Part shown: positions 3,991 through 59,766 of the stretch, piece by piece | Numbering within the stretch: position 1 is the first letter of the stretch | Layout of the letters: each line of letters opens with the position of its first letter | Origin: a virus | Length of the DNA: 64,000 nt | IMG/VR virus record: IMGVR_UViG_3300024350_000006 | Reading direction: 5' to 3' (one strand) | Program-made: the position numbers and the translations under genes | The notes under the pieces: model-generated | Databases searched by the model: none | What the model saw: the letters and a program-made list of their open reading frames with translations, nothing else | Told to the model about the DNA's origin: nothing

Positions 3991-6819
3991 ATGGCATTAA
4001 CTCGCCCCACATTTGATCAGACACTGAGCACTAAAATTGAGATCACCGATCCCGTGGTGATGATCAATAAAGGTGGAAACACGGCCCGAGATCTGGGATT
4101 TTTAATTGATCGTAGCTATCTAGCTCAATCCAATGTCGCCATAATTTTTAAACACAGTGATCAAACACTGCACTTTGTAACTACCGACGGAGGTGGGGAC
4201 ACTAACGGTAGTTTTACTATTAATACTAAAGTGGACATCAGCACGGGAAATATTAGTGCAGGTAACCTTAACCTAACAGGAAATATAACCACAGGATCGG
4301 GCACCACTCAGTTTACAGGTAATCTTATTCCCAGTGCCAACATTACCTATGATCTAGGTTCAGCTACCAATCGCTGGCGCGATATCTTTTTAAGTGGCAA
4401 CACTATTAATCTAGGTGGCGCTAGTATTAAAACAGATGCTAGCAGTGGAGCTATTGCCCTTATACCTCCTAGCACTGCGTCTAATCCTAATCCCACAGGT
4501 GTAGTAATTAGTCCAGTAGGTAGTATTACAACGGTGGCCACCACGGGCGGAGAAATATCAGGAAATAATCTAGCTAATGCTGCAAATACAGCAGCCACCA
4601 ACCAGACAACAACGCTATCTAATTTAATCGTTGATGGTAATTTAACTTTTAACAAATACATTGTAGGAAATTTAATACCTAATGTCAATGTTAGTTATAG
4701 TCTAGGTAATAGCACTAATAGATTTAAAGACCTTTGGGTAGCTAATAGTTCAATATATCTAGGTAATATTGTTTTGAGTGCAACTGATACTGCTCTTAAA
4801 ATTAATAATGTAGAAGTTCAAAGTTTATACACACTTAGTAGCATAAACGCTGCAAACATAAGCGGACAGGTGGCAAATGCACTAGTAGCTGGTACAGTTT
4901 ACACCAATGCACAGCCTAATATTACTTCTTTGGGAACACTGGCAAGTCTATCAGTTACTGGTAATATTAGTGCAGGTAACATTAGTGCTACTGGTATAAG
5001 TGGTACACTATCTACTGCAAGTCAGACAAATATAACCGCAGTTGGCACACTGGACAGTTTATCAGTTACTGGTAATATTAGTGCAGGTAACATTAGTGCA
5101 ACTGGCATTTCAGGAACATTATCAACAGCAGCACAAACTAATATAACAAGTGTGGGTACACTCGGTAGTCTTGCTGTAACAGGAAATATTAGTGCAGGTA
5201 ATATTAGTGCAACTGGTATTTCAGGTACACTATCTACTGCAAGTCAAACTAATATAACCGCAGTTGGCACACTGGACAGTTTAATAGTTACCGGAAATAT
5301 AACAAGTAGCACAGGCAATTTTATTGGTAACGGCGCACTGCTTACTGGACTACCAGCTAGCTATGCAAATACCAATGTCGCAAGCTACCTTCCAACGTAC
5401 ACAGGAAATATATCCGCTGGTAATATTAGCGTAACCACAAACGTCAGTGTCACTGGAAATATTAGTGCTAGTTATCTACTAGGTAACGGAAGCCAGTTAA
5501 CTGGTTTATCATCATCATATTCTAACACCAATGTAGCTAGTTATCTACCTACATACTCAGGAAATCTAGGTGGTACATTGACCACGGCATCACAGCCCTA
5601 TATCACTGGGCTGGGTACACTCGGTAGTCTTGCTGTAACAGGAAATATTAGTGCAGGTAATATTAGTGCAACTGGTATTTCAGGTACTTTATCAACAGCA
5701 GCACAAACTAATATAACAAGTGTGGGTACACTAGGTAGTCTATCAGTTACTGGTAATATTAGTGCAGCTAATCTTACAACTACTGCCAATGTATTTGCAA
5801 GTACTTTATATACTACTGACGGTATACGATGGTCTGGCAATGGTAATTTGTTCTCCTCGGGGACTAGTTTAACATTTACGTCATCTACAGCGCCACCGGC
5901 GAGTGGCAACGTCAAAGGTGATAAATGGTATAATACCAGTGATGATACACTATACGAATACATAAACGATGGAACCACTAGTTACTGGGTGGATATACAG
6001 TCTGGACTAATAAATGGAAACGCCAGCGGCACTATTGGCCCAACCACTGTTGATGGCAATCTAACAGTACTAGGAAACCTTATTAGCGTTAATACTGTGG
6101 GTGATATAGTCTCTGTTACAGGTAACGTTACACTAACTTCGACAGCTTTTGGTAAAATACACGTATGCACTGGAACTACAGCAGATTATACTATAATATT
6201 ACCTGCTGCCTCAGGCAACACAGGTAAAATTATTACTTTTCAGATGAGTAACGCTCTAACTAAATTAGTGACACTAGACGGAAACGCCAGTGAAACTATT
6301 GACGGATCGTTAACAAGAATTATGTGGGCTAATGAAGCAGCTACATTATATTGTAATGGCACTAGCTGGACTAAGATTGCCGGGAAGTCTGTTCCTATGA
6401 ATGTTTTATTATATAAAACCGGAGGAAACCAATCAGTGGGCAGTGGTGTAGCTACAAAATTAACTCTAGAAACTTTAGGAGCTAATACTGCACCAGCTGC
6501 AATGTATGATACTTCTTTATCTAGGATAAAAATTGTAAGACCGGGGCTATATAACATAACACATTCAGGTAGAATTACAAACATAAGCACAAGTACTAAT
6601 TCTGAAACACTAGGGTATAAAAATGGATCAGAATATGCAATTACAAGTAGATATATGACAACAGGGGATTGGGGATCTTGTCAATTTTCTATGTTAGTCT
6701 CTGCGGTAGTAAATGACTATTTCGAAACATACGTAAGACAATACTCCGGTGGTAATCAAAATTTTCTAAGTGGGGACTTTATGAACTCTATCTATGCTTA
6801 CGAGACATCTGTATGGTAA
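3991..6819 (+). CDS. Long tail fibre protein
   Basis: 942 aa; DLGSATNRWRDIFLSG fibre motifs, about 37-aa internal repeats; TAAATA promoter at about 3962. Confidence 0.75.
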   Translation: MALTRPTFDQTLSTKIEITDPVVMINKGGNTARDLGFLIDRSYLAQSNVAIIFKHSDQTLHFVTTDGGGDTNGSFTINTKVDISTGNISAGNLNLTGNITTGSGTTQFTGNLIPSANITYDLGSATNRWRDIFLSGNTINLGGASIKTDASSGAIALIPPSTASNPNPTGVVISPVGSITTVATTGGEISGNNLANAANTAATNQTTTLSNLIVDGNLTFNKYIVGNLIPNVNVSYSLGNSTNRFKDLWVANSSIYLGNIVLSATDTALKINNVEVQSLYTLSSINAANISGQVANALVAGTVYTNAQPNITSLGTLASLSVTGNISAGNISATGISGTLSTASQTNITAVGTLDSLSVTGNISAGNISATGISGTLSTAAQTNITSVGTLGSLAVTGNISAGNISATGISGTLSTASQTNITAVGTLDSLIVTGNITSSTGNFIGNGALLTGLPASYANTNVASYLPTYTGNISAGNISVTTNVSVTGNISASYLLGNGSQLTGLSSSYSNTNVASYLPTYSGNLGGTLTTASQPYITGLGTLGSLAVTGNISAGNISATGISGTLSTAAQTNITSVGTLGSLSVTGNISAANLTTTANVFASTLYTTDGIRWSGNGNLFSSGTSLTFTSSTAPPASGNVKGDKWYNTSDDTLYEYINDGTTSYWVDIQSGLINGNASGTIGPTTVDGNLTVLGNLISVNTVGDIVSVTGNVTLTSTAFGKIHVCTGTTADYTIILPAASGNTGKIITFQMSNALTKLVTLDGNASETIDGSLTRIMWANEAATLYCNGTSWTKIAGKSVPMNVLLYKTGGNQSVGSGVATKLTLETLGANTAPAAMYDTSLSRIKIVRPGLYNITHSGRITNISTSTNSETLGYKNGSEYAITSRYMTTGDWGSCQFSMLVSAVVNDYFETYVRQYSGGNQNFLSGDFMNSIYAYETSVW
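4900..5770 (+). repeat. Intragenic ~111-bp (37-aa) repeats TAAQTNITSVGTLGSLAVTGNISAGNISATGISGTLS, plus two SYANTNVASYLPTY units
   Basis: Near-identical units visible in both DNA and protein. Confidence 0.85.
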
Positions 6820-20231: not shown

Positions 20232-21485
20232 ATGAACATCAAGAGGCAAAAACTGGGATTCATCGGCATCGGAAAACTGGGCTTGGACTGTGCTGAGGTT
20301 ATGGCCACCAAACACGACGTTTGGGGATACGATATCTATCCCAGAACCAGTGACACAGTAAACGTCTGTGGCATTCAAGAACTTGTAGAGAACAGCGACT
20401 GGATTTTCATAGCAGTTCCTACACCACACGCCCAGGGATATGACGGCAGTGTACCCAGCAGCCATATGGAACCCCGAGACTTTGGTCACGATGCAGTCTA
20501 TGATGCTATTGATAACATCAATAAGTATGCCAGCACTAGCAAGAAGGTGGTTCTAATAAGCACAGTATTACCAGGCACCACACGCAAAAACTTTATTACT
20601 AGACTAGATCCCAAACACCAATTCCTATATAACCCCTACCTTATTGCTATGGGTAGCGTAAAGTGGGATATGGTCAATCCAGAAATGATTATGATTGGCA
20701 CCGAGGATGGTAGTTTGACTGGTGTGGCTGGAGAACTTCGAGAACTCTACGATACAGTTATGGAAAATAATCCACGTTACGAGATTGGTACCTGGGACGA
20801 GTGTGAAGCAATTAAAATTTTCTATAATACCTTTATTAGTGCAAAAGTTGGTTTAGTCAATATGATTCAGGATTTCGCTCTACGCATTGGTAATATAAAT
20901 GTCGACGTAGTAACTAATGCCCTATCCAAATCCACTATGCGTATTATGGGACCTAAGTATATGACTGCGGGTATGGGGGATGCCGGAGCCTGTCACCCAC
21001 GTGATAACATTGCACTACGCTGGCTGGCAAAAGAATATGACATTGGCTACGATTTGTTTGACACTGTTATGCACGCCAGAGAAATTCAGGCTAAAAATCT
21101 TGCAAAATTTTTAGTAGATACAAGCAAACAAAATGGCGAATTACCCATTGTAATACACGGTAAAGCCTACAAGCCAGATGTAGAATATTGTATTGGTAGT
21201 TACAGTACGCTCGTGGGTTTTTATGTTAAAGAACTAGGATACAATGTAGTCTATGTTGATCCACTAGCAGACGATCCCAGTGAAGTGGTTAATAATGTAG
21301 ATCAGGCCAGCGTATTTCTCTGGGCACATAATAGGCGTATTACCTACGAATACACTGGTGAACAGGAAGATACGAAACCCTATTGTAACATACTGCCTGG
21401 AAGTATAATTGTTGATCCCTGGCGTAAGTTAACTAGCACTGATAGTGTAAGGGTTATACACTACGGTAACACTAGAAAAGTTTAA
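20232..21485 (+). CDS. ugd: UDP-glucose/GDP-mannose dehydrogenase family
   Basis: GIGKLG, IAVPTP, STVLPGTT, IKIFYNTF, GACHPRD, AYKPD. Confidence 0.85.
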   Translation: MNIKRQKLGFIGIGKLGLDCAEVMATKHDVWGYDIYPRTSDTVNVCGIQELVENSDWIFIAVPTPHAQGYDGSVPSSHMEPRDFGHDAVYDAIDNINKYASTSKKVVLISTVLPGTTRKNFITRLDPKHQFLYNPYLIAMGSVKWDMVNPEMIMIGTEDGSLTGVAGELRELYDTVMENNPRYEIGTWDECEAIKIFYNTFISAKVGLVNMIQDFALRIGNINVDVVTNALSKSTMRIMGPKYMTAGMGDAGACHPRDNIALRWLAKEYDIGYDLFDTVMHAREIQAKNLAKFLVDTSKQNGELPIVIHGKAYKPDVEYCIGSYSTLVGFYVKELGYNVVYVDPLADDPSEVVNNVDQASVFLWAHNRRITYEYTGEQEDTKPYCNILPGSIIVDPWRKLTSTDSVRVIHYGNTRKV

Positions 21486-22280: not shown

Positions 22281-23519
22281 ATGGAAATTGCCAATCACCT
22301 AGAATCAATCGTCTCGGGATTGGTGCAGGATATCCAATCTAGAGTAAGCCAAGATCTAGAGTCTAAAATCAATGCCGACATTGAACAACAAATCGCAGCT
22401 AAAATAGAACAATACTTTTTAACGTTTGATCTAAAGGCTGCCCTTACCAGCGTAACTGGAGATGCTATAAGCCAGAGAGTTAGTAAGTATCCCATAGATA
22501 CAAAACAAATAGAAGAACAAATTAAAAATAGTGTAAGCAATAGCGTTGAGCTAATCAAACAAGATATTGTCAACAGAATTCACGACATAATTAGTGTAGA
22601 GTTACAGAAATATAATATTTCAGAACTAGTTGAAACAAATGTTAAAGAATATGTTCGTAGAGCAAACTTTCCTGCAGGCAGTATTCCTGCCACCAGTATA
22701 GATTTTACTGAATTTAGAATAAGTGGTGACGCCATAGCGGGTGGAATCATATCTAACTTTAGCAGTCTAGGCATAGATGATAGAGCCACGGCTTGTCAAC
22801 TTACTATTTTAGATAATGCAGTTGTAGTAGAACAAAAAATAGTAACAACAGGACTAGATGTGCGTGGCGGTATCAAGACAGAATCACTAACTGTAAATGA
22901 TTTAAAAATCTCGGGAAATATTGATCAAGATAGCCCAGCACTAGCTAAAATAATAGAACAGGCCAAGTCTGATACTATCAATACTATAGCTAACAAAGGA
23001 CTGGAAACACCGCAGATAGTTTTTGATAACAAGATATTACTTAACGAACAATCTCTTGGTCCAAGTGTGCTAACCAGTCATCTTAGAAAAACAGGTACCT
23101 TGGAAAGTCTGCAAACCAAGGGTGAAACCCTACTAGACAATACTCTTTATGTACGTAACCGTCGTGTGGGAGTAAACACTCTTGAACCTGCCTATGCTTT
23201 AACTGTCTGGGATGATGAAACAGAAACTGTCATTATGAAGCAGAGTAAGAATAGATCTTTTATTGGTAGCCAGAGACAACATACTGTGACATTAGGTGCA
23301 GGTGGTCAGGAAAATATAAGTCTTGATCCAGACGGCAGCGTAACCATTAATGATCTACGTCTAGGCGCCCTACCACTGGGCACAGCCAGCACCAGCCCAA
23401 ACTGGGCAGGAAGAACTGGAGAAATAGTTTTCAATGACAGCCCTCAAATTGGCCAGCCTATAGGCTGGGTCTGCCTGCAAGGACATCGCTGGGCTCAATT
23501 TGGCACTATAACTGATTGA
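22281..23519 (+). CDS. Hypothetical, probably structural protein
   Basis: Helical N-terminus; fibre-like C-terminus (RVGVNTLEP, GEIVFN..P..GQPIGWVC). Confidence 0.6.
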   Translation: MEIANHLESIVSGLVQDIQSRVSQDLESKINADIEQQIAAKIEQYFLTFDLKAALTSVTGDAISQRVSKYPIDTKQIEEQIKNSVSNSVELIKQDIVNRIHDIISVELQKYNISELVETNVKEYVRRANFPAGSIPATSIDFTEFRISGDAIAGGIISNFSSLGIDDRATACQLTILDNAVVVEQKIVTTGLDVRGGIKTESLTVNDLKISGNIDQDSPALAKIIEQAKSDTINTIANKGLETPQIVFDNKILLNEQSLGPSVLTSHLRKTGTLESLQTKGETLLDNTLYVRNRRVGVNTLEPAYALTVWDDETETVIMKQSKNRSFIGSQRQHTVTLGAGGQENISLDPDGSVTINDLRLGALPLGTASTSPNWAGRTGEIVFNDSPQIGQPIGWVCLQGHRWAQFGTITD

Positions 23520-23549
23520 TTTTAATCTAGTCTACTGCTAGAATGCAGT

Positions 23550-23813
23550 ATGACCTTAATTCTAAGCCACAGACAATGGAATAAAATCTACCCAATCCTA
23601 ATCAAGGAATTAGGACCCTCGGGAGTTCTAAGTTGGAATCTCAAAAAAAATTTTGGATATACTGTTAGATATCATCGCGGCAAGGACATTCTATTGAACA
23701 AGTGGGTAGACGATATAAGATTAGATTTTTTCTCTGAATCGGCTATATCTATGTTCAGATTAAAATTTCTAGACATACTAAATGCCAATGAAAATTCTCG
23801 GGAGGTTATATGA
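23550..23813 (+). CDS. Hypothetical protein
   Basis: ORF after a sigma70-like promoter. Confidence 0.55.
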   Translation: MTLILSHRQWNKIYPILIKELGPSGVLSWNLKKNFGYTVRYHRGKDILLNKWVDDIRLDFFSESAISMFRLKFLDILNANENSREVI

Positions 23814-24145
23814 TTGAAATGCGCTGGTTAAAACGTAATACTGGTAGGGTTATCTACAACCAGTATGGTCTTGAAACATTAGAAACAACAACTGTACTTC
23901 AATATCGTGTGTATATTGATCACGCCACCTACGCCTTGCCTGCAGGCGTTCCAAGACCCAAAGGCCACGAGGATATGCGTTGGTCTCAATGGCAGGATGT
24001 TCCCACTGTGGATGAAACCAGTGCAAGAGCAACTGCATTAAACTCCTGTAGCAAATGCAATCTAGATTTCACACACAGTTACAATATGGGTTTTGTGTGT
24101 TCTAATAATCCCTGTCCCTCGGGACTGGGCTCTAGTGCCAGTTAA
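23810..24145 (+). CDS. Hypothetical protein with C-terminal Cys motif
   Basis: ATGA-coupled; CSKC...CSNNPC. Confidence 0.55.
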   Translation: MIEMRWLKRNTGRVIYNQYGLETLETTTVLQYRVYIDHATYALPAGVPRPKGHEDMRWSQWQDVPTVDETSARATALNSCSKCNLDFTHSYNMGFVCSNNPCPSGLGSSAS

Positions 24146-24215
24146 AATAGCGGTGACTACAATCGAGGCATTATGGACTGTTACGATAATATTAAAGAGC
24201 ATTTTGGAGATTTAA

Positions 24216-24449
24216 ATGAACGAACGATTTAAAGAACTTGCTGTACAATCTGATTTGTGGCGAATGCTAGAAGAATATTCTTGGGAATTCGGTAGTTGCG
24301 ATCCTGAAAAAGATTGTGGTCGTATTGAAAAATTCGCCGAGTTGATTGTGCGGGAATGTATTGAACAAGTTATTACTGGACCCAACGGACCTGCTCATTA
24401 TGCTGTGGAAGCGGCTTTACGATTAAAGAAACATTTCGGAGTAGAATGA
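24216..24449 (+). CDS. NER-FAELIVREC-HFGVE family protein, copy 1
   Basis: MNERFKELA...EKFAELIVREC...KKHFGVE. Confidence 0.75.
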   Translation: MNERFKELAVQSDLWRMLEEYSWEFGSCDPEKDCGRIEKFAELIVRECIEQVITGPNGPAHYAVEAALRLKKHFGVE

Positions 24450-24619
24450 TGAACGAAGAACTCAATGAAATACTCAACCAAGAAATAGTTAGAGAAACAC
24501 TATTAGAAGTCAATCCCAACACCGATGATGCTCTAGTGGAAAAGATATGGAGTCATTGTAATGGTAATCCTTGGAACGCTGTCCCTCTCTACAACATCCT
24601 AAAGGCTTTGGAAAAATGA
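24446..24619 (+). CDS. Array cargo micro-protein (57 aa)
   Basis: ATGA-coupled at both ends; MMNEELNEIL...ILKALEK. Confidence 0.6.
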   Translation: MMNEELNEILNQEIVRETLLEVNPNTDDALVEKIWSHCNGNPWNAVPLYNILKALEK

Positions 24620-24849
24620 ACGAACGATTTCGGGAACTTGCTAAAGAGGCTGGCGGAAACCCAAACTATAAGGCTTTTGGTGGACATTTTCTTCCCCCGC
24701 CGCCAGACTATATTGATCCTGCTACTGTGGACTTAGCAAAGTTCGCCGAGTTGATTGTGAGAGAATGTTGTGATGTTTTGTATGACAATGAACTGGGTGG
24801 GTATCAAGTAAACTATGTACTAAAAGAACATTTTGGAGTTGAAAAATGA
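24616..24849 (+). CDS. NER-FAELIVREC-HFGVE family protein, copy 2
   Basis: MNERFRELA...KFAELIVREC...KEHFGVEK. Confidence 0.75.
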   Translation: MNERFRELAKEAGGNPNYKAFGGHFLPPPPDYIDPATVDLAKFAELIVRECCDVLYDNELGGYQVNYVLKEHFGVEK

Positions 24850-25085
24850 AAGAAACTACTAGATACTTTCGCTCTACATTTGACAAAATGCGACAGCGTG
24901 GATGGACTGTTATTCCTTGGGAGCCGGGGCAATCCAATCAAGCACAAGTCTTAGACTGGCTACGATCAAACGGTGATGGTGAATTTTATTATTCAGCAGA
25001 AGCAAACAAATTTAACTTTAGTATCGTAATCAAAGATGCCAACGATGCTGATAGATTCAAACAACATTTTGGAGTTGAAGAATGA
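24846..25085 (+). CDS. Array cargo protein with the HFGVEE tail only
   Basis: Unrelated body ending KQHFGVEE. Confidence 0.65.
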   Translation: MKETTRYFRSTFDKMRQRGWTVIPWEPGQSNQAQVLDWLRSNGDGEFYYSAEANKFNFSIVIKDANDADRFKQHFGVEE

Positions 25086-25252
25086 GACTAATTGAAAAAC
25101 AAGTAAAGGCAAACCCCGATACCTTTGCACCTGAATTGGTGGTGACTGTTGCGCTCCCGGTCCAACTAGAAGATAAACCCAACGACATTAAAACCTATGA
25201 ACAATGGGGCAAAGAGTTTTTAGATTTAATTGGAGCAAAGGCCAAAGAATGA
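25082..25252 (+). CDS. Array cargo micro-protein (56 aa)
   Basis: ATGA-coupled; MRLIEKQ...GAKAKE. Confidence 0.6.
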   Translation: MRLIEKQVKANPDTFAPELVVTVALPVQLEDKPNDIKTYEQWGKEFLDLIGAKAKE

Positions 25253-25479
25253 ACGAACGAATTCAAGAACTTTGGAATAAGGCTGCTGACTCTACGGCCG
25301 CTTTCCCCAGTGGACAAAATAACTCTTGGGAAATTCAGGTTAATTTTATGGAAAAATTCGCCGAGTTAATTATATCCGAATGTATTGACATTATCGGTCC
25401 CTATGCTGTCAGGATGGACGACTTTGATGGCGGGCATCCTATTGCAGATTTAAAGAAACATTTTGGAGTAACCCAATGA
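25249..25479 (+). CDS. NER-FAELIVREC-HFGVE family protein, copy 3
   Basis: MNERIQEL...EKFAELIISEC...KKHFGVTQ. Confidence 0.75.
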   Translation: MNERIQELWNKAADSTAAFPSGQNNSWEIQVNFMEKFAELIISECIDIIGPYAVRMDDFDGGHPIADLKKHFGVTQ

Positions 25480-25655
25480 CACCAGAATTCATTGACCGAG
25501 TAAAACGAGACTATGATAACGAAGTAACCAAACCAGATTGGGAATCTTATCTTGCTGGATATTGGGCTGCGGTTAAACGCTTTGGTAATGCCCGTGATAG
25601 AAAAGAAACTAAATCAAAACTTGGATATTCACGAATTGGATTGAGGAATGTATGA
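25476..25655 (+). CDS. Array cargo micro-protein (59 aa)
   Basis: ATGA-coupled; MTPEFIDRV...GLRNV. Confidence 0.6.
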   Translation: MTPEFIDRVKRDYDNEVTKPDWESYLAGYWAAVKRFGNARDRKETKSKLGYSRIGLRNV

Positions 25656-25912
25656 ACAATGAACGACTTATAGTGCTTGCTAATGAGTGTACTTCATACA
25701 AAGAAGGGTTTATTGAAGGAAAACACGACATTGAGATTTTTGACAAAGAAAAGTTCGCCGAGTTGATTGTGAGAGAATGTATCGATGCTATTGATGCTGC
25801 CCGACCATATCATACAAACGATCATCTGGTAAATGATTATATGAATGGTGTTGAACACGGGCATAAGTTTGCTATTACTATGATTAGAAAACATTTCGGA
25901 GTTGAAGAATGA
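25652..25912 (+). CDS. NER-FAELIVREC-HFGVE family protein, copy 4
   Basis: MNNERL...EKFAELIVREC...RKHFGVEE. Confidence 0.75.
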   Translation: MNNERLIVLANECTSYKEGFIEGKHDIEIFDKEKFAELIVRECIDAIDAARPYHTNDHLVNDYMNGVEHGHKFAITMIRKHFGVEE

Positions 25913-26046
25913 GTAATTTATGGATCAACTGGAGATTTGGAACAAGACATTTACAGATCAGTCGTGACTTTCCCTATGTAAGTTTTAGAGTCAATCCATA
26001 TTGGGTTGAGCATAAACCCGCTAAATGGTTTGAGGTCTATAGATGA
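25909..26046 (+). CDS. Array cargo micro-protein (45 aa, aromatic-rich)
   Basis: ATGA-coupled; MSNLWINWRFG...WFEVYR. Confidence 0.6.
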   Translation: MSNLWINWRFGTRHLQISRDFPYVSFRVNPYWVEHKPAKWFEVYR

Positions 26047-26151
26047 ACAAACCAATTCAAGAGGCAGTCTACAAGTATTTTGGAATCATTTGACCCAAAG
26101 TATTGGTTGTGTTAGACTACATTATTATATAATTAAATCATAATCAAATAT

Positions 26152-27183
26152 ATGCCTGGACGAATAGGTTTTGCCTGTAAGTGGATTGATCATCCTCATC
26201 AAGTGGATGGTATCAAACCCAAGGACGAATGCAAAGAATATAATACAATGACTACCACTGTGGCCTGGCTTAATCGTCAGCGTCGTGAAGTGGCTGAACA
26301 AAAACTCTGGGACCTTATGGTCTACAATATTGAAGCTAATCGTAAACTAGTGGAAAGGGTGGGTGCTCTAGATGATCATCTCAAAATGGTACGTATTGGC
26401 AGCGACATTCTGCCCTGTTATACTGAGCCTAATTGGAGTTATTATTGGCGCCAAGGCGATGTTGTTCGTTACGCCGAGGATGCGTTTCGAAAGGTTGGTG
26501 ATCTTGCTAGGCATCACGGCGTTCGTCTTAGTATGCATCCAGGCCAGTTTACTGTGCTTGCAAGTGATAGACCAGATGTAGTAGAAAGGGCTATAGATGA
26601 ATTTGAATACCACAGCACAATGGCCGCTTGGATGGGCTATGGACAAAAATTCCAAGACTTTAAAATTAACATCCACATCAGTGGAAAGAAAGGCCCCCAG
26701 GGAATACGTGACGTCTACCCCAGACTATCGCCCGAGGCTAGGAATACAATTACCGTTGAAAATGAAGAAATAAGCTATGGACTTGATGACTGTCTTACTC
26801 TTTCTGATCTCGTGCCTACTGTTCTGGATCTTCATCACCATTGGATCAAAAGCGGTGGAGAATACATATCGCCCACCGATGCTAGGATACAGATGGTGGT
26901 GGACAGCTGGCGAGGTGTTAGGCCTGCTCTGCATTATAGTGTTAGCCGTGAAGATCTTCTCGTGGACTTTGACACAAATACTAAGCCTGATTTAAAGTTA
27001 CTTCTTGAACAAGGTCACAAACGACAAAAACTTAGAGCCCACAGTGACTTTATGTGGAATCAGGAAGTAAATGATTGGGCGTTGGGTCATCTTGTCTGGG
27101 CTGACTTTATGGTAGAAGCCAAAGCCAAAAATTTGGCCAGCTTTGAACTGGCCAAACGAGCTCAAACACTGGGTTTGGTCTAA
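26152..27183 (+). CDS. uvsE: UV-damage endonuclease UvsE/UVDE
   Basis: RIGFAC, RLSMHPGQFTVL, INIH, VENEE, VLDLHHH, HYS, AHSD, MVEAKAK. Confidence 0.9.
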   Translation: MPGRIGFACKWIDHPHQVDGIKPKDECKEYNTMTTTVAWLNRQRREVAEQKLWDLMVYNIEANRKLVERVGALDDHLKMVRIGSDILPCYTEPNWSYYWRQGDVVRYAEDAFRKVGDLARHHGVRLSMHPGQFTVLASDRPDVVERAIDEFEYHSTMAAWMGYGQKFQDFKINIHISGKKGPQGIRDVYPRLSPEARNTITVENEEISYGLDDCLTLSDLVPTVLDLHHHWIKSGGEYISPTDARIQMVVDSWRGVRPALHYSVSREDLLVDFDTNTKPDLKLLLEQGHKRQKLRAHSDFMWNQEVNDWALGHLVWADFMVEAKAKNLASFELAKRAQTLGLV

Positions 27184-56264: not shown

Positions 56265-56433
56265 TTTTAAAACACTTTCCGTCAATTTTAAATGATTCAA
56301 ACTTTACCCAATAACTCATTGATTTTAAACTTTGTTCGCACGTTGTCTGATCAGGAAATTCCAGAGTTAGTTTTGCGGGAACGTCCTTTGGATCGTTTAC
56401 GTGTACCGCTATCAATATCATCAACCACATCAT
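56248..56433 (-). CDS. Small secreted two-Cys protein
   Basis: MMWLMILIAV...FPDQTTCEQ...GKC. Confidence 0.5.
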   Translation of the reverse strand: MMWLMILIAVHVNDPKDVPAKLTLEFPDQTTCEQSLKSMSYWVKFESFKIDGKCFKNEIKR

Positions 56434-57181
56434 CTTGCTCCTGTGTCCAAGTTACTATTTCCCAAGTGCCATTGTGATGTTCTACTAGAGCAGTCATTGA
56501 TTCCACCCAGTCACCGTCATTCATATACACAACACCGTCTATGTTCTTGATCTCTGCGTGATGTATGTGCCCACATATAACACCATCAAATCCACGTTTT
56601 TTACAGTATGCGGCTAGATTCTTTTCAAATTGAAATATAAAGTCTACCGCTTTCTTAACTCTTCCTTTAAGATATAGACTAAGACTCCAATAACCAAAAC
56701 CAAGGCGATGACGTATCCAGTTGAATCGTGAATTAAGTCCCAATACAAAATCATATGCACGATCTCCCAATAAAGTTAACCAGGGGGCTAGTCTAGTAAT
56801 ACCATCAAATAGGTCGCCGTGTGTAACTAGATAATGCTTCCCATCAACACCAATATGTTCAAATTGATTATGTAATTCCACCATTCCAAAATTTAAATTA
56901 TACTGCAAAAAGGGTCTTAAAAATTCATCGTGGTTACCAATTATATACACAACTCTTGTGTCACGCTTTGCGTGACCTAAAATACGTCGAACAACGTTGG
57001 TGTGGCTTTGTTTCCAACGCCATTTGTTTTGCTTGATTTTCCAAGCATCTATAATGTCACCTACTAGATAAAGAGTTTCACAGGTGTTATGTTTCAAAAA
57101 ATTATTGAGTGCTTCAGCTTTACAATCTTTAGTACCTAGGTGAACATCACTAATAAAAATACTACGATAAGTTTTGTTCAT
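56351..57181 (-). CDS. plcP: PlcP-type metallophosphoesterase (phospholipase C; LpxH2-like family)
   Basis: RSIFISDVHLG, LVGDIIDAW, GNHDEFLR, HGDLFD, YWSLS..LK..VK.AV, DGVICGHIHHA, NDGDWVES. Confidence 0.78.
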   Translation of the reverse strand: MNKTYRSIFISDVHLGTKDCKAEALNNFLKHNTCETLYLVGDIIDAWKIKQNKWRWKQSHTNVVRRILGHAKRDTRVVYIIGNHDEFLRPFLQYNLNFGMVELHNQFEHIGVDGKHYLVTHGDLFDGITRLAPWLTLLGDRAYDFVLGLNSRFNWIRHRLGFGYWSLSLYLKGRVKKAVDFIFQFEKNLAAYCKKRGFDGVICGHIHHAEIKNIDGVVYMNDGDWVESMTALVEHHNGTWEIVTWTQEQDDVVDDIDSGTRKRSKGRSRKTNSGIS

Positions 57182-57186
57182 ACAAA

Positions 57187-57221
57187 TATTTAAGGTTTAC
57201 CAAATTACAAATCCATTACAT
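57187..57221 (-). promoter_or_regulatory. Pho-box-like promoter of plcP
   Basis: Minus strand atGTAATggat-ttGTAAT-N11-TAAATA. Confidence 0.65.
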
Positions 57222-57256
57222 AGTCAATAAAAAAGCCCCTTTCGGAGCTTTTTTAA

Positions 57257-58681
57257 TTAGAAGTTCAATTGACTTCTAAACATTATGGCTCGATCACCAG
57301 TTACTCGACCACCTGCAGAGCCTACAAGTTGATCAAACTGCGTGTCAACATAGTTAAGCATAAATCTCATATTATCAGTAGCGAACCAAGTTAGACCGTA
57401 GGTAATAGCTGTAGCACGATTTGATTTACCTGTAGCTACGGTGATGTCGCTAGCATCAAACTCGCTTAAACGTACACCTATTTGCCAGGCACCGCGACCA
57501 CCTTTGTCTAGAGGATTGTTGGGTTTAACTGCACCGAACACTCCATCCTTGTAGTTATAACCTTCGCCTGTCAGGTTGTACACAGCCAATACATAGTAAC
57601 CTTTAATTTCCTTATCTGCACCTGTTGTAGGATCATATTTAAAATTAAATTGTTCTGCTTGTACTTTGAATGCGTTATAGGCAAATGCAGCTTCTAGACC
57701 TTGACGTGTTCTTGTAGTGATGCCACCGAGTGCTGGACCAGTAAACCAGGCATTTTGTGAGCGTGATTCTGTCCTAGCACTAGCAGGTGTTACACCACCT
57801 TTTATCTCACCTGTACTGTAAGCAGCACCCAAATGAGCAACATACGTCTTACTGCCAGTAAGATCAGCAATGTTAGTAGTAACACGACCAATATAGTCTA
57901 GACCATCTGATACAGCATCTTTGTTGCCACGACCACGACTTACTGCTAGAGCGTAAGTTAATCCAGTTTTTGGTACACCGTGTAGCATAAATCCAGTTTC
58001 TTTTGCGGGAATTAGTTCGCCTTCCGCTTGACCAACTAGGCTGCGTTCCATCATATCAATGTTGTTAGAACTTTGTAGTTGTTCAAGACTGAATGGCATC
58101 TTGAACAAACCAAATTGGTATTGTAGTTCTGGATTAGCAGCATAGTTGACCCAGGCTACGTCCATATTAGTTGACGAACTAGCTGCACCTACATCGTTAC
58201 CAAAGTTACCAACTAGTTCGTATTTGAAGTCTTTGGCAAATTGTCCACGCACTCCAAAACGTGCGCGGCGCATTTCTGCTAGGTCCTGATACGAATCCGT
58301 GGTTTGACCTGCACCGTAAGTCGGGGAGTATTGACGATAGTCCATATGTAGTCGACCTGTAAGCTGAATGGTATTGTTGCCATCTTTGCTTTTGAGACCG
58401 ATTCCGTTTTCTGTGACTGCGCCGTCGTTGACTCTTGCGATTCTATATTTGTTTGATTCGCTGACATCCTTGTCTATTCTTTGTTCTATGAACTTACGGT
58501 TTTCTGCTCGTTCTTCGTGAGCTTGTACTTTACTGTCATATTCACTCTGCGTCAATATACCTTTGTCCTTTAAAATTTTTAAAGTATCAAGGTAATCGTC
58601 TGCATAGGCTGGTACACAAAATGCAAGACTAAAGGCCAGAGCTAGTGTTGTTAATTTTTTCATTTTTTTCCTTATTTCCAA
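57257..58681 (-). CDS. Phosphate-selective porin (OprO/OprP family)
   Basis: Signal peptide, GRLHMDY, RRARFGVRG, GLFKMPFSLEQLQSS, C-terminal QLNF. Confidence 0.82.
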   Translation of the reverse strand: MEIRKKMKKLTTLALAFSLAFCVPAYADDYLDTLKILKDKGILTQSEYDSKVQAHEERAENRKFIEQRIDKDVSESNKYRIARVNDGAVTENGIGLKSKDGNNTIQLTGRLHMDYRQYSPTYGAGQTTDSYQDLAEMRRARFGVRGQFAKDFKYELVGNFGNDVGAASSSTNMDVAWVNYAANPELQYQFGLFKMPFSLEQLQSSNNIDMMERSLVGQAEGELIPAKETGFMLHGVPKTGLTYALAVSRGRGNKDAVSDGLDYIGRVTTNIADLTGSKTYVAHLGAAYSTGEIKGGVTPASARTESRSQNAWFTGPALGGITTRTRQGLEAAFAYNAFKVQAEQFNFKYDPTTGADKEIKGYYVLAVYNLTGEGYNYKDGVFGAVKPNNPLDKGGRGAWQIGVRLSEFDASDITVATGKSNRATAITYGLTWFATDNMRFMLNYVDTQFDQLVGSAGGRVTGDRAIMFRSQLNF

Positions 58682-59697
58682 ATTGTTGTATTGTCTGGAC
58701 CTTTAAGATCCTTTTTCCAGTTATCCTGTACTAACTTGATAACTGACTGTGGCAAGTGAACATACTCTAGCTCTTCACTCATCTTAGCACCGTTCTTATA
58801 ACTCCAGTCAAAGAATTTAAGAATTGCACGACCTGTTAGTGCATCAGTTTGTTGCTTGTGCATTAAAATAAAACTTGCACCTGTAGCTGGCCAAGCATCC
58901 TTACCTTTTTGATCTGTTAGCAACAAATACATTCCTGGAGCATTAGCCCAGTCTGCATTAGCTGCTGCCGCTTTAAATGTACTATCATCTGGTTGTACAA
59001 AATTACCATCACGATTTTTTAATTGTGCATAGGCAATTTTATTTTTTTTAGCAAAGGCATATTCAACATAACCAAACGAACCTTTAACACGTTGAACGTT
59101 AGCTGCCACGCCTTCGTTACCTTTGCCGCCTACGCCCACTGGCCATTTAACTGCGGTGCCCTCACCAATGGCCTTTTGAAATTCGGCATTAACTTTACTT
59201 AGATAGTTTGTCCAAATAAATGTTGTGCCCGATCCATCTGCACGATGAATAACTGTAATATTGATTGCAGGTAGATTAACACCAGGATTCAAATCAGCAA
59301 TTGCTTTGTCATTCCATTTTGTAATCTTACCTAGATGTATATTAGCAATGACATCGCTGGTTAGTTTAAGTTGTCCAGGTTGTACTCCATCTAGATTAAA
59401 CACAGGCACTACGCCTCCTATGATGGCAGGGAACTGTACAAGTCCTTCTTTATCTAATTCCTCAGGCTTTAGTGGCATATCACTGGCACCAAAATCAACT
59501 GTCTTGGCTTTGATTTGACGAATACCGCCACCTGAACCAATTGATTGATAATTTAATCCAATACCAGTTGAAGCTTTATAAGCCTCGGCCCATTTAGAAT
59601 ATATTGGATAGGGAAAGGTAGCACCTGCTCCAGTTAGGTCTGCTGCCTCAGCGGATATAGCTAGTGAGGAAAACAATACCAATAAAAACTTTTTCAT
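58672..59697 (-). CDS. pstS: Phosphate ABC transporter substrate-binding protein PstS
   Basis: GAGATFPYP, QSIGSGGG, DFGASD, HRADGSGTT, GKGNEGV, GYVE. Confidence 0.95.
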   Translation of the reverse strand: MKKFLLVLFSSLAISAEAADLTGAGATFPYPIYSKWAEAYKASTGIGLNYQSIGSGGGIRQIKAKTVDFGASDMPLKPEELDKEGLVQFPAIIGGVVPVFNLDGVQPGQLKLTSDVIANIHLGKITKWNDKAIADLNPGVNLPAINITVIHRADGSGTTFIWTNYLSKVNAEFQKAIGEGTAVKWPVGVGGKGNEGVAANVQRVKGSFGYVEYAFAKKNKIAYAQLKNRDGNFVQPDDSTFKAAAANADWANAPGMYLLLTDQKGKDAWPATGASFILMHKQQTDALTGRAILKFFDWSYKNGAKMSEELEYVHLPQSVIKLVQDNWKKDLKGPDNTTIWK

Positions 59698-59713
59698 ATA
59701 TAATCTCCATTTA

Positions 59714-59766
59714 ATGTGCATTGCACAAAAATATTTAAACACAGGCATATTACCGTTTAATTACAA
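59714..59766 (-). promoter_or_regulatory. Pho-box-like promoter of pstS plus TGTGCA-A-TGCACA palindrome
   Basis: Minus strand ttGTAATtaaa-cgGTAAT-N11-TAAATA, then TTGTGCAATGCACAT. Confidence 0.65.

Follow-up and report, generated by a model that had tools for sequence, protein, structure and literature searches.

A tandem array of small genes from a large phage protein family, with short DNA-conserved blocks as putative joints for recombination

Between positions 24216 and 26093 of a 64,000-nucleotide (nt) stretch of viral DNA, IMG/VR record IMGVR_UViG_3300024350_000006 (here called the window, meaning the whole stretch that was analysed), lie ten consecutive open reading frames (ORFs) on the + strand, which were established by ORF listing and direct reading and together form a tandem array of very small genes. 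Four of them, the paralogs A, B, C and D, encode 76-86 amino acids (aa), fall within 24216-25912 and share a layout in which three short conserved blocks, termed head, mid and tail, enclose two variable segments, V1 and V2, in the order head-V1-mid-V2-tail. Interspersed with the paralogs are five further small ORFs, c1 to c5, and an ATGA overlap is found at each of the nine consecutive junctions. The array is a tandem set from a very large protein family that has no earlier description or name, and in what follows we describe its genes, the wider family and the evidence that bears on the role of the blocks.

The array and its three blocks

The pairwise identity of A, B, C and D is 38-43%, and nearly all of it lies within the three blocks. 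An earlier reading of these letters without database searches (the sequence-only reading) had described four paralogs with three shared blocks and unrelated segments between them, alternating with five small ORFs and joined by ATGA at every junction, and this description stands. Two of its details need correction: C ends in HFGVTQ and D starts with MNNER.

Paralog A (77 aa, 24216..24449) has its head at 24216-24230, its mid block at 24327-24364 and its tail at 24432-24452, and is found by the family profile hidden Markov model (HMM) with an E-value of 1.6e-29. It is followed by c1 (57 aa, 24446..24619), which has a head-like start, ATGATGAACGAA, and no homologue among 80 related loci. Paralog B (77 aa, 24616..24849; mid 24735-24768, tail 24829-24849) carries a V1 of the type GGNPNYKAF..PPPPDYIDPATVDL, and the next ORF, c2 (79 aa, 24846..25085), has a body unrelated to the family that nevertheless ends in the tail block (25065-25085), as the sequence-only reading had noticed; c2 belongs to a small family of its own, with 20 clusters, in which FKQHFGVE always stands at the end. 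Then come c3 (56 aa, 25082..25252, from the ORF listing), for which no relative was found among the related loci, and paralog C (76 aa, 25249..25479), with its mid core at 25354-25373 and the variant tail HFGVTQ at 25459-25479. The V1 type of C recurs in L085, L013 (twice) and L023, each time with different V2 segments. The end of c4 (59 aa, 25476..25655) is a second shared C-terminal block, KSKLGYSRIGLRNV, from which an ATGA leads into the head of paralog D (86 aa, 25652..25912; mid 25748-25785, tail 25892-25912). The last two members are c5 (45 aa, 25909..26046), which has a homologue in L032 and is kept in a deletion variant of this phage described below, and a mini-ORF of 16 aa (MNKPIQEAVYKYFGII, 26043..26093) in which a head-like start is joined directly to a tail-like end. 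The earlier view of the five ORFs as unrelated cargo has to be revised for c2 with its own tail-bearing family and for c4 with its second shared block.

Remnants had been proposed on both flanks of the array. The one on the 3' side is the 16-aa ORF just mentioned, while the one on the 5' side is corrected to a mini-ORF of 19 aa read from the sequence (MDCYDNIKEHFGDLNERTI, 24173..24232, + strand), whose degenerate tail block (about 24194-24219) provides A with its GGAG and a 6-nt spacer. The chain of overlapped ATGA junctions begins still further 5', with an 87-aa ORF at 23550 and a 111-aa ORF at 23810. A sigma-70-like match (TTGATT, 17 nt, TG-n-TAGAAT; window 23516-23549) precedes this chain, in a region where such matches are not above chance.

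At the level of DNA, the consensus of the head block is ATGAACGAACGAATT.A.AACT, that of the mid block is AAAAGTTCGCCGAGTTGATTGT...GAATGT (short form AAGTTCGCCGAGTTGATTGT..GAATGT) and that of the tail block is AACATTTCGGAGTTGAAGAA(TGA) (short form CATTTCGGAGTTGAAGAATGA). These sequences are far more frequent in the 64-kb window than chance would allow, with four occurrences of the mid-block 20-mer (0.03 expected), four of the tail 21-mer, in A, B, c2 and D (0.02 expected), and three of the head 12-mer ATGAACGAACGA (0.17 expected). A Chi-like or genome-wide signal was considered and rejected: within the window TTCGCCGAG is confined to the four mid-block sites and the head 12-mer is likewise confined to the array.

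The tail block doubles as a translation signal. It reads CAT TTC GGA GTT GAA GAA TGA and so contains GGAG, a 7-nt spacer (TTGAAGA) and an ATG that overlaps its own stop codon; anything that lands 3' of it therefore keeps a ribosome-binding site and translational coupling, as the sequence-only reading had pointed out. Across the family, 193 of 226 ends (85%) have the ATGA overlap. A strict tail motif was found at 169 ORF ends, 155 of them with the overlap, and the gene that follows begins with a family head in 48 cases and is another gene in 107; the strict motif also ends a few unrelated ORFs, c2 among them. Similar endings occur elsewhere: a blastn search of cultured phages with the 45-nt tail/head junction returned only unrelated ORFs ending in ..GGEE or ..GIEE, from the Rheinheimera Barba phages and Edwardsiella phage PEi20. 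The small ORFs of Rheinheimera phage Barba1A (L094 2279-2524) and Edwardsiella phage PEi20 (L095 2323-2526) end in ..LGGEE and ..LGIEE and have a GGAG/GGAA-type stretch resembling a Shine-Dalgarno (SD) sequence before an ATGA overlap. It follows that a C-terminal G-x-E-E may simply reflect an SD that lies within the last codons of an upstream gene overlapping the next.

A large family from uncultured freshwater phages

The profile built from the four paralogs matches at least 7,979 metagenomic protein clusters at 90% identity, and HMMER, run exhaustively against 1.84 billion 50%-identity representatives, gave 7,077 matches at E<=1e-3. Among 80 IMG/VR contigs searched with the HMM, loci of up to 12 kb hold between one and 11 family copies, most of them several. 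These contigs differ strongly in gene content, and no gene cluster outside the family is present in more than about 21 of the 80 loci.

The claim that the system has no described name is borne out by the databases and the literature. Nothing in Pfam, PHROGs or NCBIfam rises above the cut-off, the only listed matches falling short of theirs (GvpO at 21.6 bits against a cut-off of 25), and literature searches by block peptide motif and by concept found no description of the family. No member was detected by tblastn with D and P0115 among the cultured phages of INPHARED (50,697 records). A scan of one genome for each of 185,579 prokaryote species gave 18 loci, all on contigs of metagenome-assembled genomes (MAGs), and most of these we take to be from freshwater-lake taxa or sites. 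Neighbours in the ESM Atlas are all viral and belong to hypothetical clusters only, and the matches in BFVD are relatives only, annotated as proteins of 'uncultured Caudovirales phage'.

The proteins of the family are acidic (isoelectric point 4.9, net charge -6) and measure 77 aa in the median, with one nearly invariant cysteine (..REC) and one histidine (HFG). An AlphaFold2 model of A predicts a small, all-helical protein of four helices (predicted local distance difference test score (pLDDT) 80, predicted template modelling score (pTM) 0.70). With this model, Foldseek found nothing in the PDB at E<=0.001 and VIA-align gave Z-scores of at most 5.5, which are generic for helical bundles, so that neither search offered an informative structural neighbour. 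Among the weak helical-bundle matches of the model (24216-24446) are FrmR, CsoR and CstR, at Z 4.7-5.3, and InrS appears in the Foldseek list; we take all four to belong to the CsoR/RcnR family and mention them as a lead only. Aberrant family products are also seen (P0241, P0151, P0128 and P0130), comprising two copies fused in tandem, a protein in which the mid block is present twice, a headless copy fused behind an N-terminal part of 107 aa and a read-through into a next ORF that ends in GVEE.

Codon conservation and exchange at the blocks

According to the sequence-only reading, an ordinary tandem paralog family would show blocks whose synonymous sites vary freely, breakpoints that are not enriched at the blocks and an array that is stable in order and content among relatives. 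Something different was found on each count, beginning with the codons. For every match column of the family HMM, codons were tallied over 228 full-length copies and compared with a background taken from the same loci. A single codon dominates only in HMM columns 2-8, 42-47 and 78-83, that is in the blocks, where it reaches 60-94% against 13-59% in the background, and the variable columns follow the background. In the order of the codons recorded, these values are 84% against 40% for AAC, 93% against 13% for CGA, 86% against 49% for ATT in the head, 73% against 18% for CTT, 86% against 36% for AAG, 74% against 32% for TTC, 79% against 20% for GCC, 86% against 26% for GAG, 84% against 24% for TTG, 94% against 49% for ATT in the mid block, 91% against 59% for CAT, 94% against 23% for GGA and 88% against 35% for GTT. 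The valine directly 3' of the mid block is free in its choice of codon. The bias is independent of the way in which the loci were retrieved, since it persists in 70 copies that match neither of the peptide patterns used for retrieval.

An internal control is provided by the C-terminal peptide KSKLGYSRIGLGNV (KLGYSRIGLGNV), which varies freely at synonymous sites, with four codons for serine, four for arginine and three for leucine. This is the picture expected from a purely protein-level constraint. This second shared block, KSKLGYSRIGL(R/G)NV in c4, also stands at the end of at least four ORF bodies unrelated to one another, spread over nine other loci; besides 25476-25655 in the window, it is found in L008 (5749-6004), L030 and L054 (both 5692-6004), L036 (6563-6749), L046 (1742-2054), L051 (6628-6859), L059 (4195-4507), L061 (6558-6870) and L018 (6778-7006). 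Two of these ORF bodies carry the family mid block, and a family head usually follows through an ATGA overlap.

The second line of evidence is the free combination of the variable segments. A set of 231 distinct proteins yields 115 clusters of V1 and 173 of V2. Every one of the 18 multi-member V1 clusters is joined to two or more V2 clusters, the largest of them, to which B belongs, having 61 members with 53 V2 types, and 29 of the 36 multi-member V2 clusters are in turn joined to two or more V1 clusters. Reciprocal halves can be recognised directly in the alignment, where N-terminal halves of A, B, C and B are combined with C-terminal halves of D, C, B and A respectively.

Breakpoints between loci were taken to be the points where matches between them at >=88% identity end. 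There are 191 unique internal endpoints, and 110 of these lie no more than 10 nt from a block, against an average of 9.05 and a maximum of 17 for endpoints placed at random. In a second run (>=90% identity over >=100 nt), 84 of 159 endpoints fell in family ORFs, which make up 6% of the DNA. They stack at HMM columns 1-2, 9-14, 40-42, 51-53, 74-77 and 80-83, with none inside V1 and two inside V2.

Strain variants of the same phage carry the changes themselves. The contig L081 is 99.98% identical to the window 3' of the array, and one of its genes is 100% A up to TTCGCCGAGTTGATTGTG and 100% D after it; this A/D hybrid (P0004) has lost 1.4 kb, and its crossover falls in a stretch of 18 identical nt of the mid block. 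From the start of the contig to the first D-specific base there are exactly 141 nt, equal to the k of the assembly, as expected of a real branch in the assembly graph where the variant path leaves the shared one. A different event is seen in L089 and L093; over about 5 kb 5' of the array, L089 is 99.98% identical to the window and L093 has the same gene order. L089, L093 and the window agree letter for letter through the head, V1 and mid block of A and then continue into three unrelated V2 segments, after which L089 and L093 reconverge at the tail block and share their downstream genes. The V2 of L089 is found elsewhere joined to the V1 type of C (P0107). Finally, L090, which is about 76% identical elsewhere, shares only 24194-24361 of the window, from the tail remnant to the mid block, at 98.8%.

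The window is part of a large novel freshwater phage, and the longest contig with these proteins is 173 kb. Besides genes for a DNA polymerase and an endolysin, the phage carries auxiliary ones (56351-59748 on the - strand, 20232-21485, 26152-27183): the gene of a PstS-like phosphate-binding protein (pstS) adjoins that of a phosphate porin (phosphate-selective porin O/P), and others encode a UDP-glucose dehydrogenase, the UV endonuclease UvdE and several radical-SAM proteins. In another lineage, represented by L085 (2335-2856, 6749-7321, 7644-8453), the small-gene region with family copies includes genes with Tad3 (PF25185) and DruA (PF14236) domains. Tad3 is an anti-Thoeris protein and DruA a Druantia defence protein, and their presence is circumstantial for the idea of an anti-defence role. 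The same region contains three intergenic repeats of 52-94 nt with 82-87% identity, which may resemble the promoter-early stem-loop (PeSL) elements discussed below.

Interpretation and comparison with known systems

We consider it probable, at about three chances in four, that the blocks are joints conserved at the DNA level, at which recombination joins different sequences of this very large family of small proteins. The proposal of the sequence-only reading that they act as recombination anchors is supported by the fixed synonymous sites, the enrichment of breakpoints, the combinations of V1 with V2 and the strain variants. As the comparisons show, exchange at the mid block recombines V1 with V2, whereas a replacement confined to V2 results when both mid and tail take part. 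Two genes of the array that exchange at their mid blocks lose everything between them, and exchange at the tail/head junction moves whole small genes. For the capture of cargo genes, the observations that speak are the tail-only chimeras and the endpoints at the tail end and head start. The exchanges may be the work of general recombination at short homologies, in the course of replication or co-infection and without any dedicated recombinase, and the identity of the blocks could be upheld by repeated exchange, by selection or by both. The outcome would be a combinatorial library of small putative binding proteins, probably aimed at host or defence targets.

Several observations weigh against the blocks as recombination joints. 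Pairs of blocks from one genome share short runs of exact identity (median 14-15 nt), and in about 26% of pairs the run reaches >=20 nt. The A/D hybrid rests on one assembled contig, 21 of the 24 near-identical contigs that were read keep the full array, and the members of the second lineage, L085, L086 and L088, are collinear and for that reason gave no breakpoints; taken together, this stability indicates that exchange is occasional and not programmed. In terms of codons, the V1 type of C varies at seven of 15 columns with an invariant residue against three of 13 in the blocks, a comparison made on few copies, and since this V1 also shows few synonymous changes between phages, part of the codon fixation may be due to recent spread. 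Translation signals partly account for the conservation of the tail, and perhaps of the head, and it is for the mid block that an independent explanation is lacking. Sequence by itself cannot demonstrate that recombination is what selection acts on.

A bolder version is that selection keeps the blocks as in-frame joints, forming a recombinase-free 'exon-shuffling' device of freshwater phages that would maintain a library of small acidic putative binders against host defences or for host takeover. This we regard as a tentative idea, and on balance doubtful. If it were true, co-infecting phages could swap half-genes or mini-genes and retain reading frame, fold and translation signals. In any case the family, which ranks among the larger unnamed families of small proteins in uncultured freshwater phages, is flagged as a diversifying module and as a candidate for host-interaction or anti-defence roles.

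Of the alternatives to recombination joints, the one that survives best holds that the conservation reflects cis-acting expression signals, with an SD and coupled start in the tail, an initiation region in the head and an operator for RNA or protein in the mid block, recombination being a passive consequence. The tail does present GGAG, a 7-nt spacer and ATGA in 85% of copies, unrelated phage ORFs end in ..GGEE or ..GIEE where an SD occupies their last codons, and the head is more unpaired than the transcript average (0.54 against 0.44). The mid block, however, sits in the middle of the gene with no used start codon after it, the CATTTC that lies 5' of the SD is fixed as well, and L089 and L093 keep the tail although the next gene has its own SD 38 nt downstream. 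A role for the blocks in RNA structure was rejected, as partition-function folding of 80 family transcripts gave no consistent pairing of head, mid and tail with one another (median pair mass about 0, the same as for control segments). As a full account, expression signalling seems to us unlikely; it is compatible with the joint interpretation and does not exclude it.

An ordinary tandem paralog family, in which the blocks are conserved only as the core of a helical protein and exchange is incidental, is less probable again. It would fit the mapping of the blocks onto the model helices H3-11, H30-54 and H61-74, the strong conservation of K-F-A-E-L-I-V-x-E-C and H-F-G-V as amino acids, and the stability of the arrays in most near-identical contigs. 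Constraint on the protein would nevertheless leave third codon positions free, whereas rare codons such as CGA (13% in the background) and GGA (23%) reach 93-94% in the blocks, and the protein-only block KLGYSRIGLGNV in the same arrays shows just such freedom in its serine, arginine and leucine codons.

Recognition of the blocks by a dedicated enzyme, either a site-specific recombinase or a homing-type nuclease, appears very improbable. Its one candidate is an ORF of about 110 aa with GIY-YIG-like motifs (..VYxI..YIG[IV]T..R..E..LN), which is found up to 6 kb from family copies in about 21 loci, namely L038 (3063-3587) and about 20 more, for example L028, L015, L017 and L085 (9488-9905). Pfam gives no domain for this ORF, the 64-kb window contains no homologue of it, and about three quarters of the loci lack it. 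Crossovers fall anywhere within the identical runs, as in homologous exchange. The precomputed Pfam lists for genes up to about 5 kb from the array contain no integrase or recombinase domain, nor is one common in the flanks of the 80 loci, which supports the earlier view of an integrase-free system.

It is hardly credible that the mosaics are chimeras which arose at the repeated blocks in assembly or in the library: although the A/D hybrid comes from a single contig that ends at the gene, its shared run of 18 nt is far shorter than k=141, making a chimera at that k impossible, and is below even the smallest usual k of MEGAHIT, 21, while P0019 is present on 6 contigs, whose samples come from ENA and JGI (NCBI and Logan are further listed sources), P0010 in 30 blocks of the collection, of which 24 contigs were read, and the mosaics occur in long contigs with different downstream genes.

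Among known systems of diversification, the array resembles integron cassettes in having small promoterless genes in one orientation with interchangeable content. It differs from them in its coding junctions, in exchanges that take place in identical runs rather than at attC, and in that the records for about 5 kb around it show no IntI-type integrase. A diversity-generating retroelement was considered and rejected, as the records for genes near the array list no reverse transcriptase domain and the variable segments differ altogether in sequence and in length instead of by point mutation. In the pilE/pilS system of Neisseria, variable minicassettes lie between short conserved segments that guide gene conversion, and silent copies donate to one expression locus; in the array, by contrast, every copy is a complete, translationally coupled gene.

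The nearest known systems are, by analogy, the PeSL cassettes of T4-type phages and the conserved-motif design of the gp38 adhesin. PeSLs are short conserved repeats among small ORFs in a plastic region, where they mark the breakpoints of indels and replacements (Arbiol et al. 2010, PMC2839356; Comeau et al. 2014, PMC4122927); the SD and start of the downstream gene lie at the 3' end of the repeat, and there is no dedicated recombinase (PMC2839356). Neighbouring PeSLs can also give rise to mini-circles by exchange. The blocks are comparable in that they mark breakpoints between close relatives and carry the SD and start of the next gene without a recombinase. Unlike PeSLs, which are intergenic promoter/terminator elements of about 100 bp, they are coding, measure 15-25 nt and occur three to a gene of 230 bp, and for this reason half-genes are also shuffled in frame. 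They lie inside coding sequence and all junctions are 4-nt overlaps; no terminator-like site was found on either strand of 23615-26671, and promoter-like matches there number 12 against the 14.2 expected from shuffled sequence.

In gp38 of the T-even phages, conserved glycine-rich motifs form the structural core and separate hypervariable segments (Trojet et al. 2011, PMC3157838), and conserved motifs in the tail-fibre locus mediate shuffling (Tetart 1998, cited in PMC3157838). The alternation of an intragenic conserved core with variable, shuffled segments is common to both. In contrast to gp38, a single-copy virion adhesin, the family consists of multi-copy helical proteins of about 77 aa with no Pfam or PHROG match and no relation to gp38 in sequence or fold, and frozen synonymous sites are shown here.

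The more general precedent is the 'linker' model of Botstein (1980), in which short homologous sequences at module borders would promote the exchange of non-homologous modules (cited in PMC3157838). That model deals with the borders between functional gene modules; here the joints are found both within mini-genes and from one mini-gene to the next, and thousands of copies are available for counting. Since Botstein it has been a matter of debate whether short conserved linker sequences guide phage mosaicism, and there are few clear cases, PeSLs and tail-fibre motifs being the main ones. The present family offers thousands of natural replicates, and because its joints are short (15-25 nt), intragenic and frozen at synonymous sites, with breakpoints that can be mapped to the codon, the linker hypothesis becomes countable in metagenomes and testable by comparing native with synonymously recoded blocks. 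Motif-mediated modular shuffling is thus of an already known kind, and what is new here is its coding, intragenic form in a very large family not described before.

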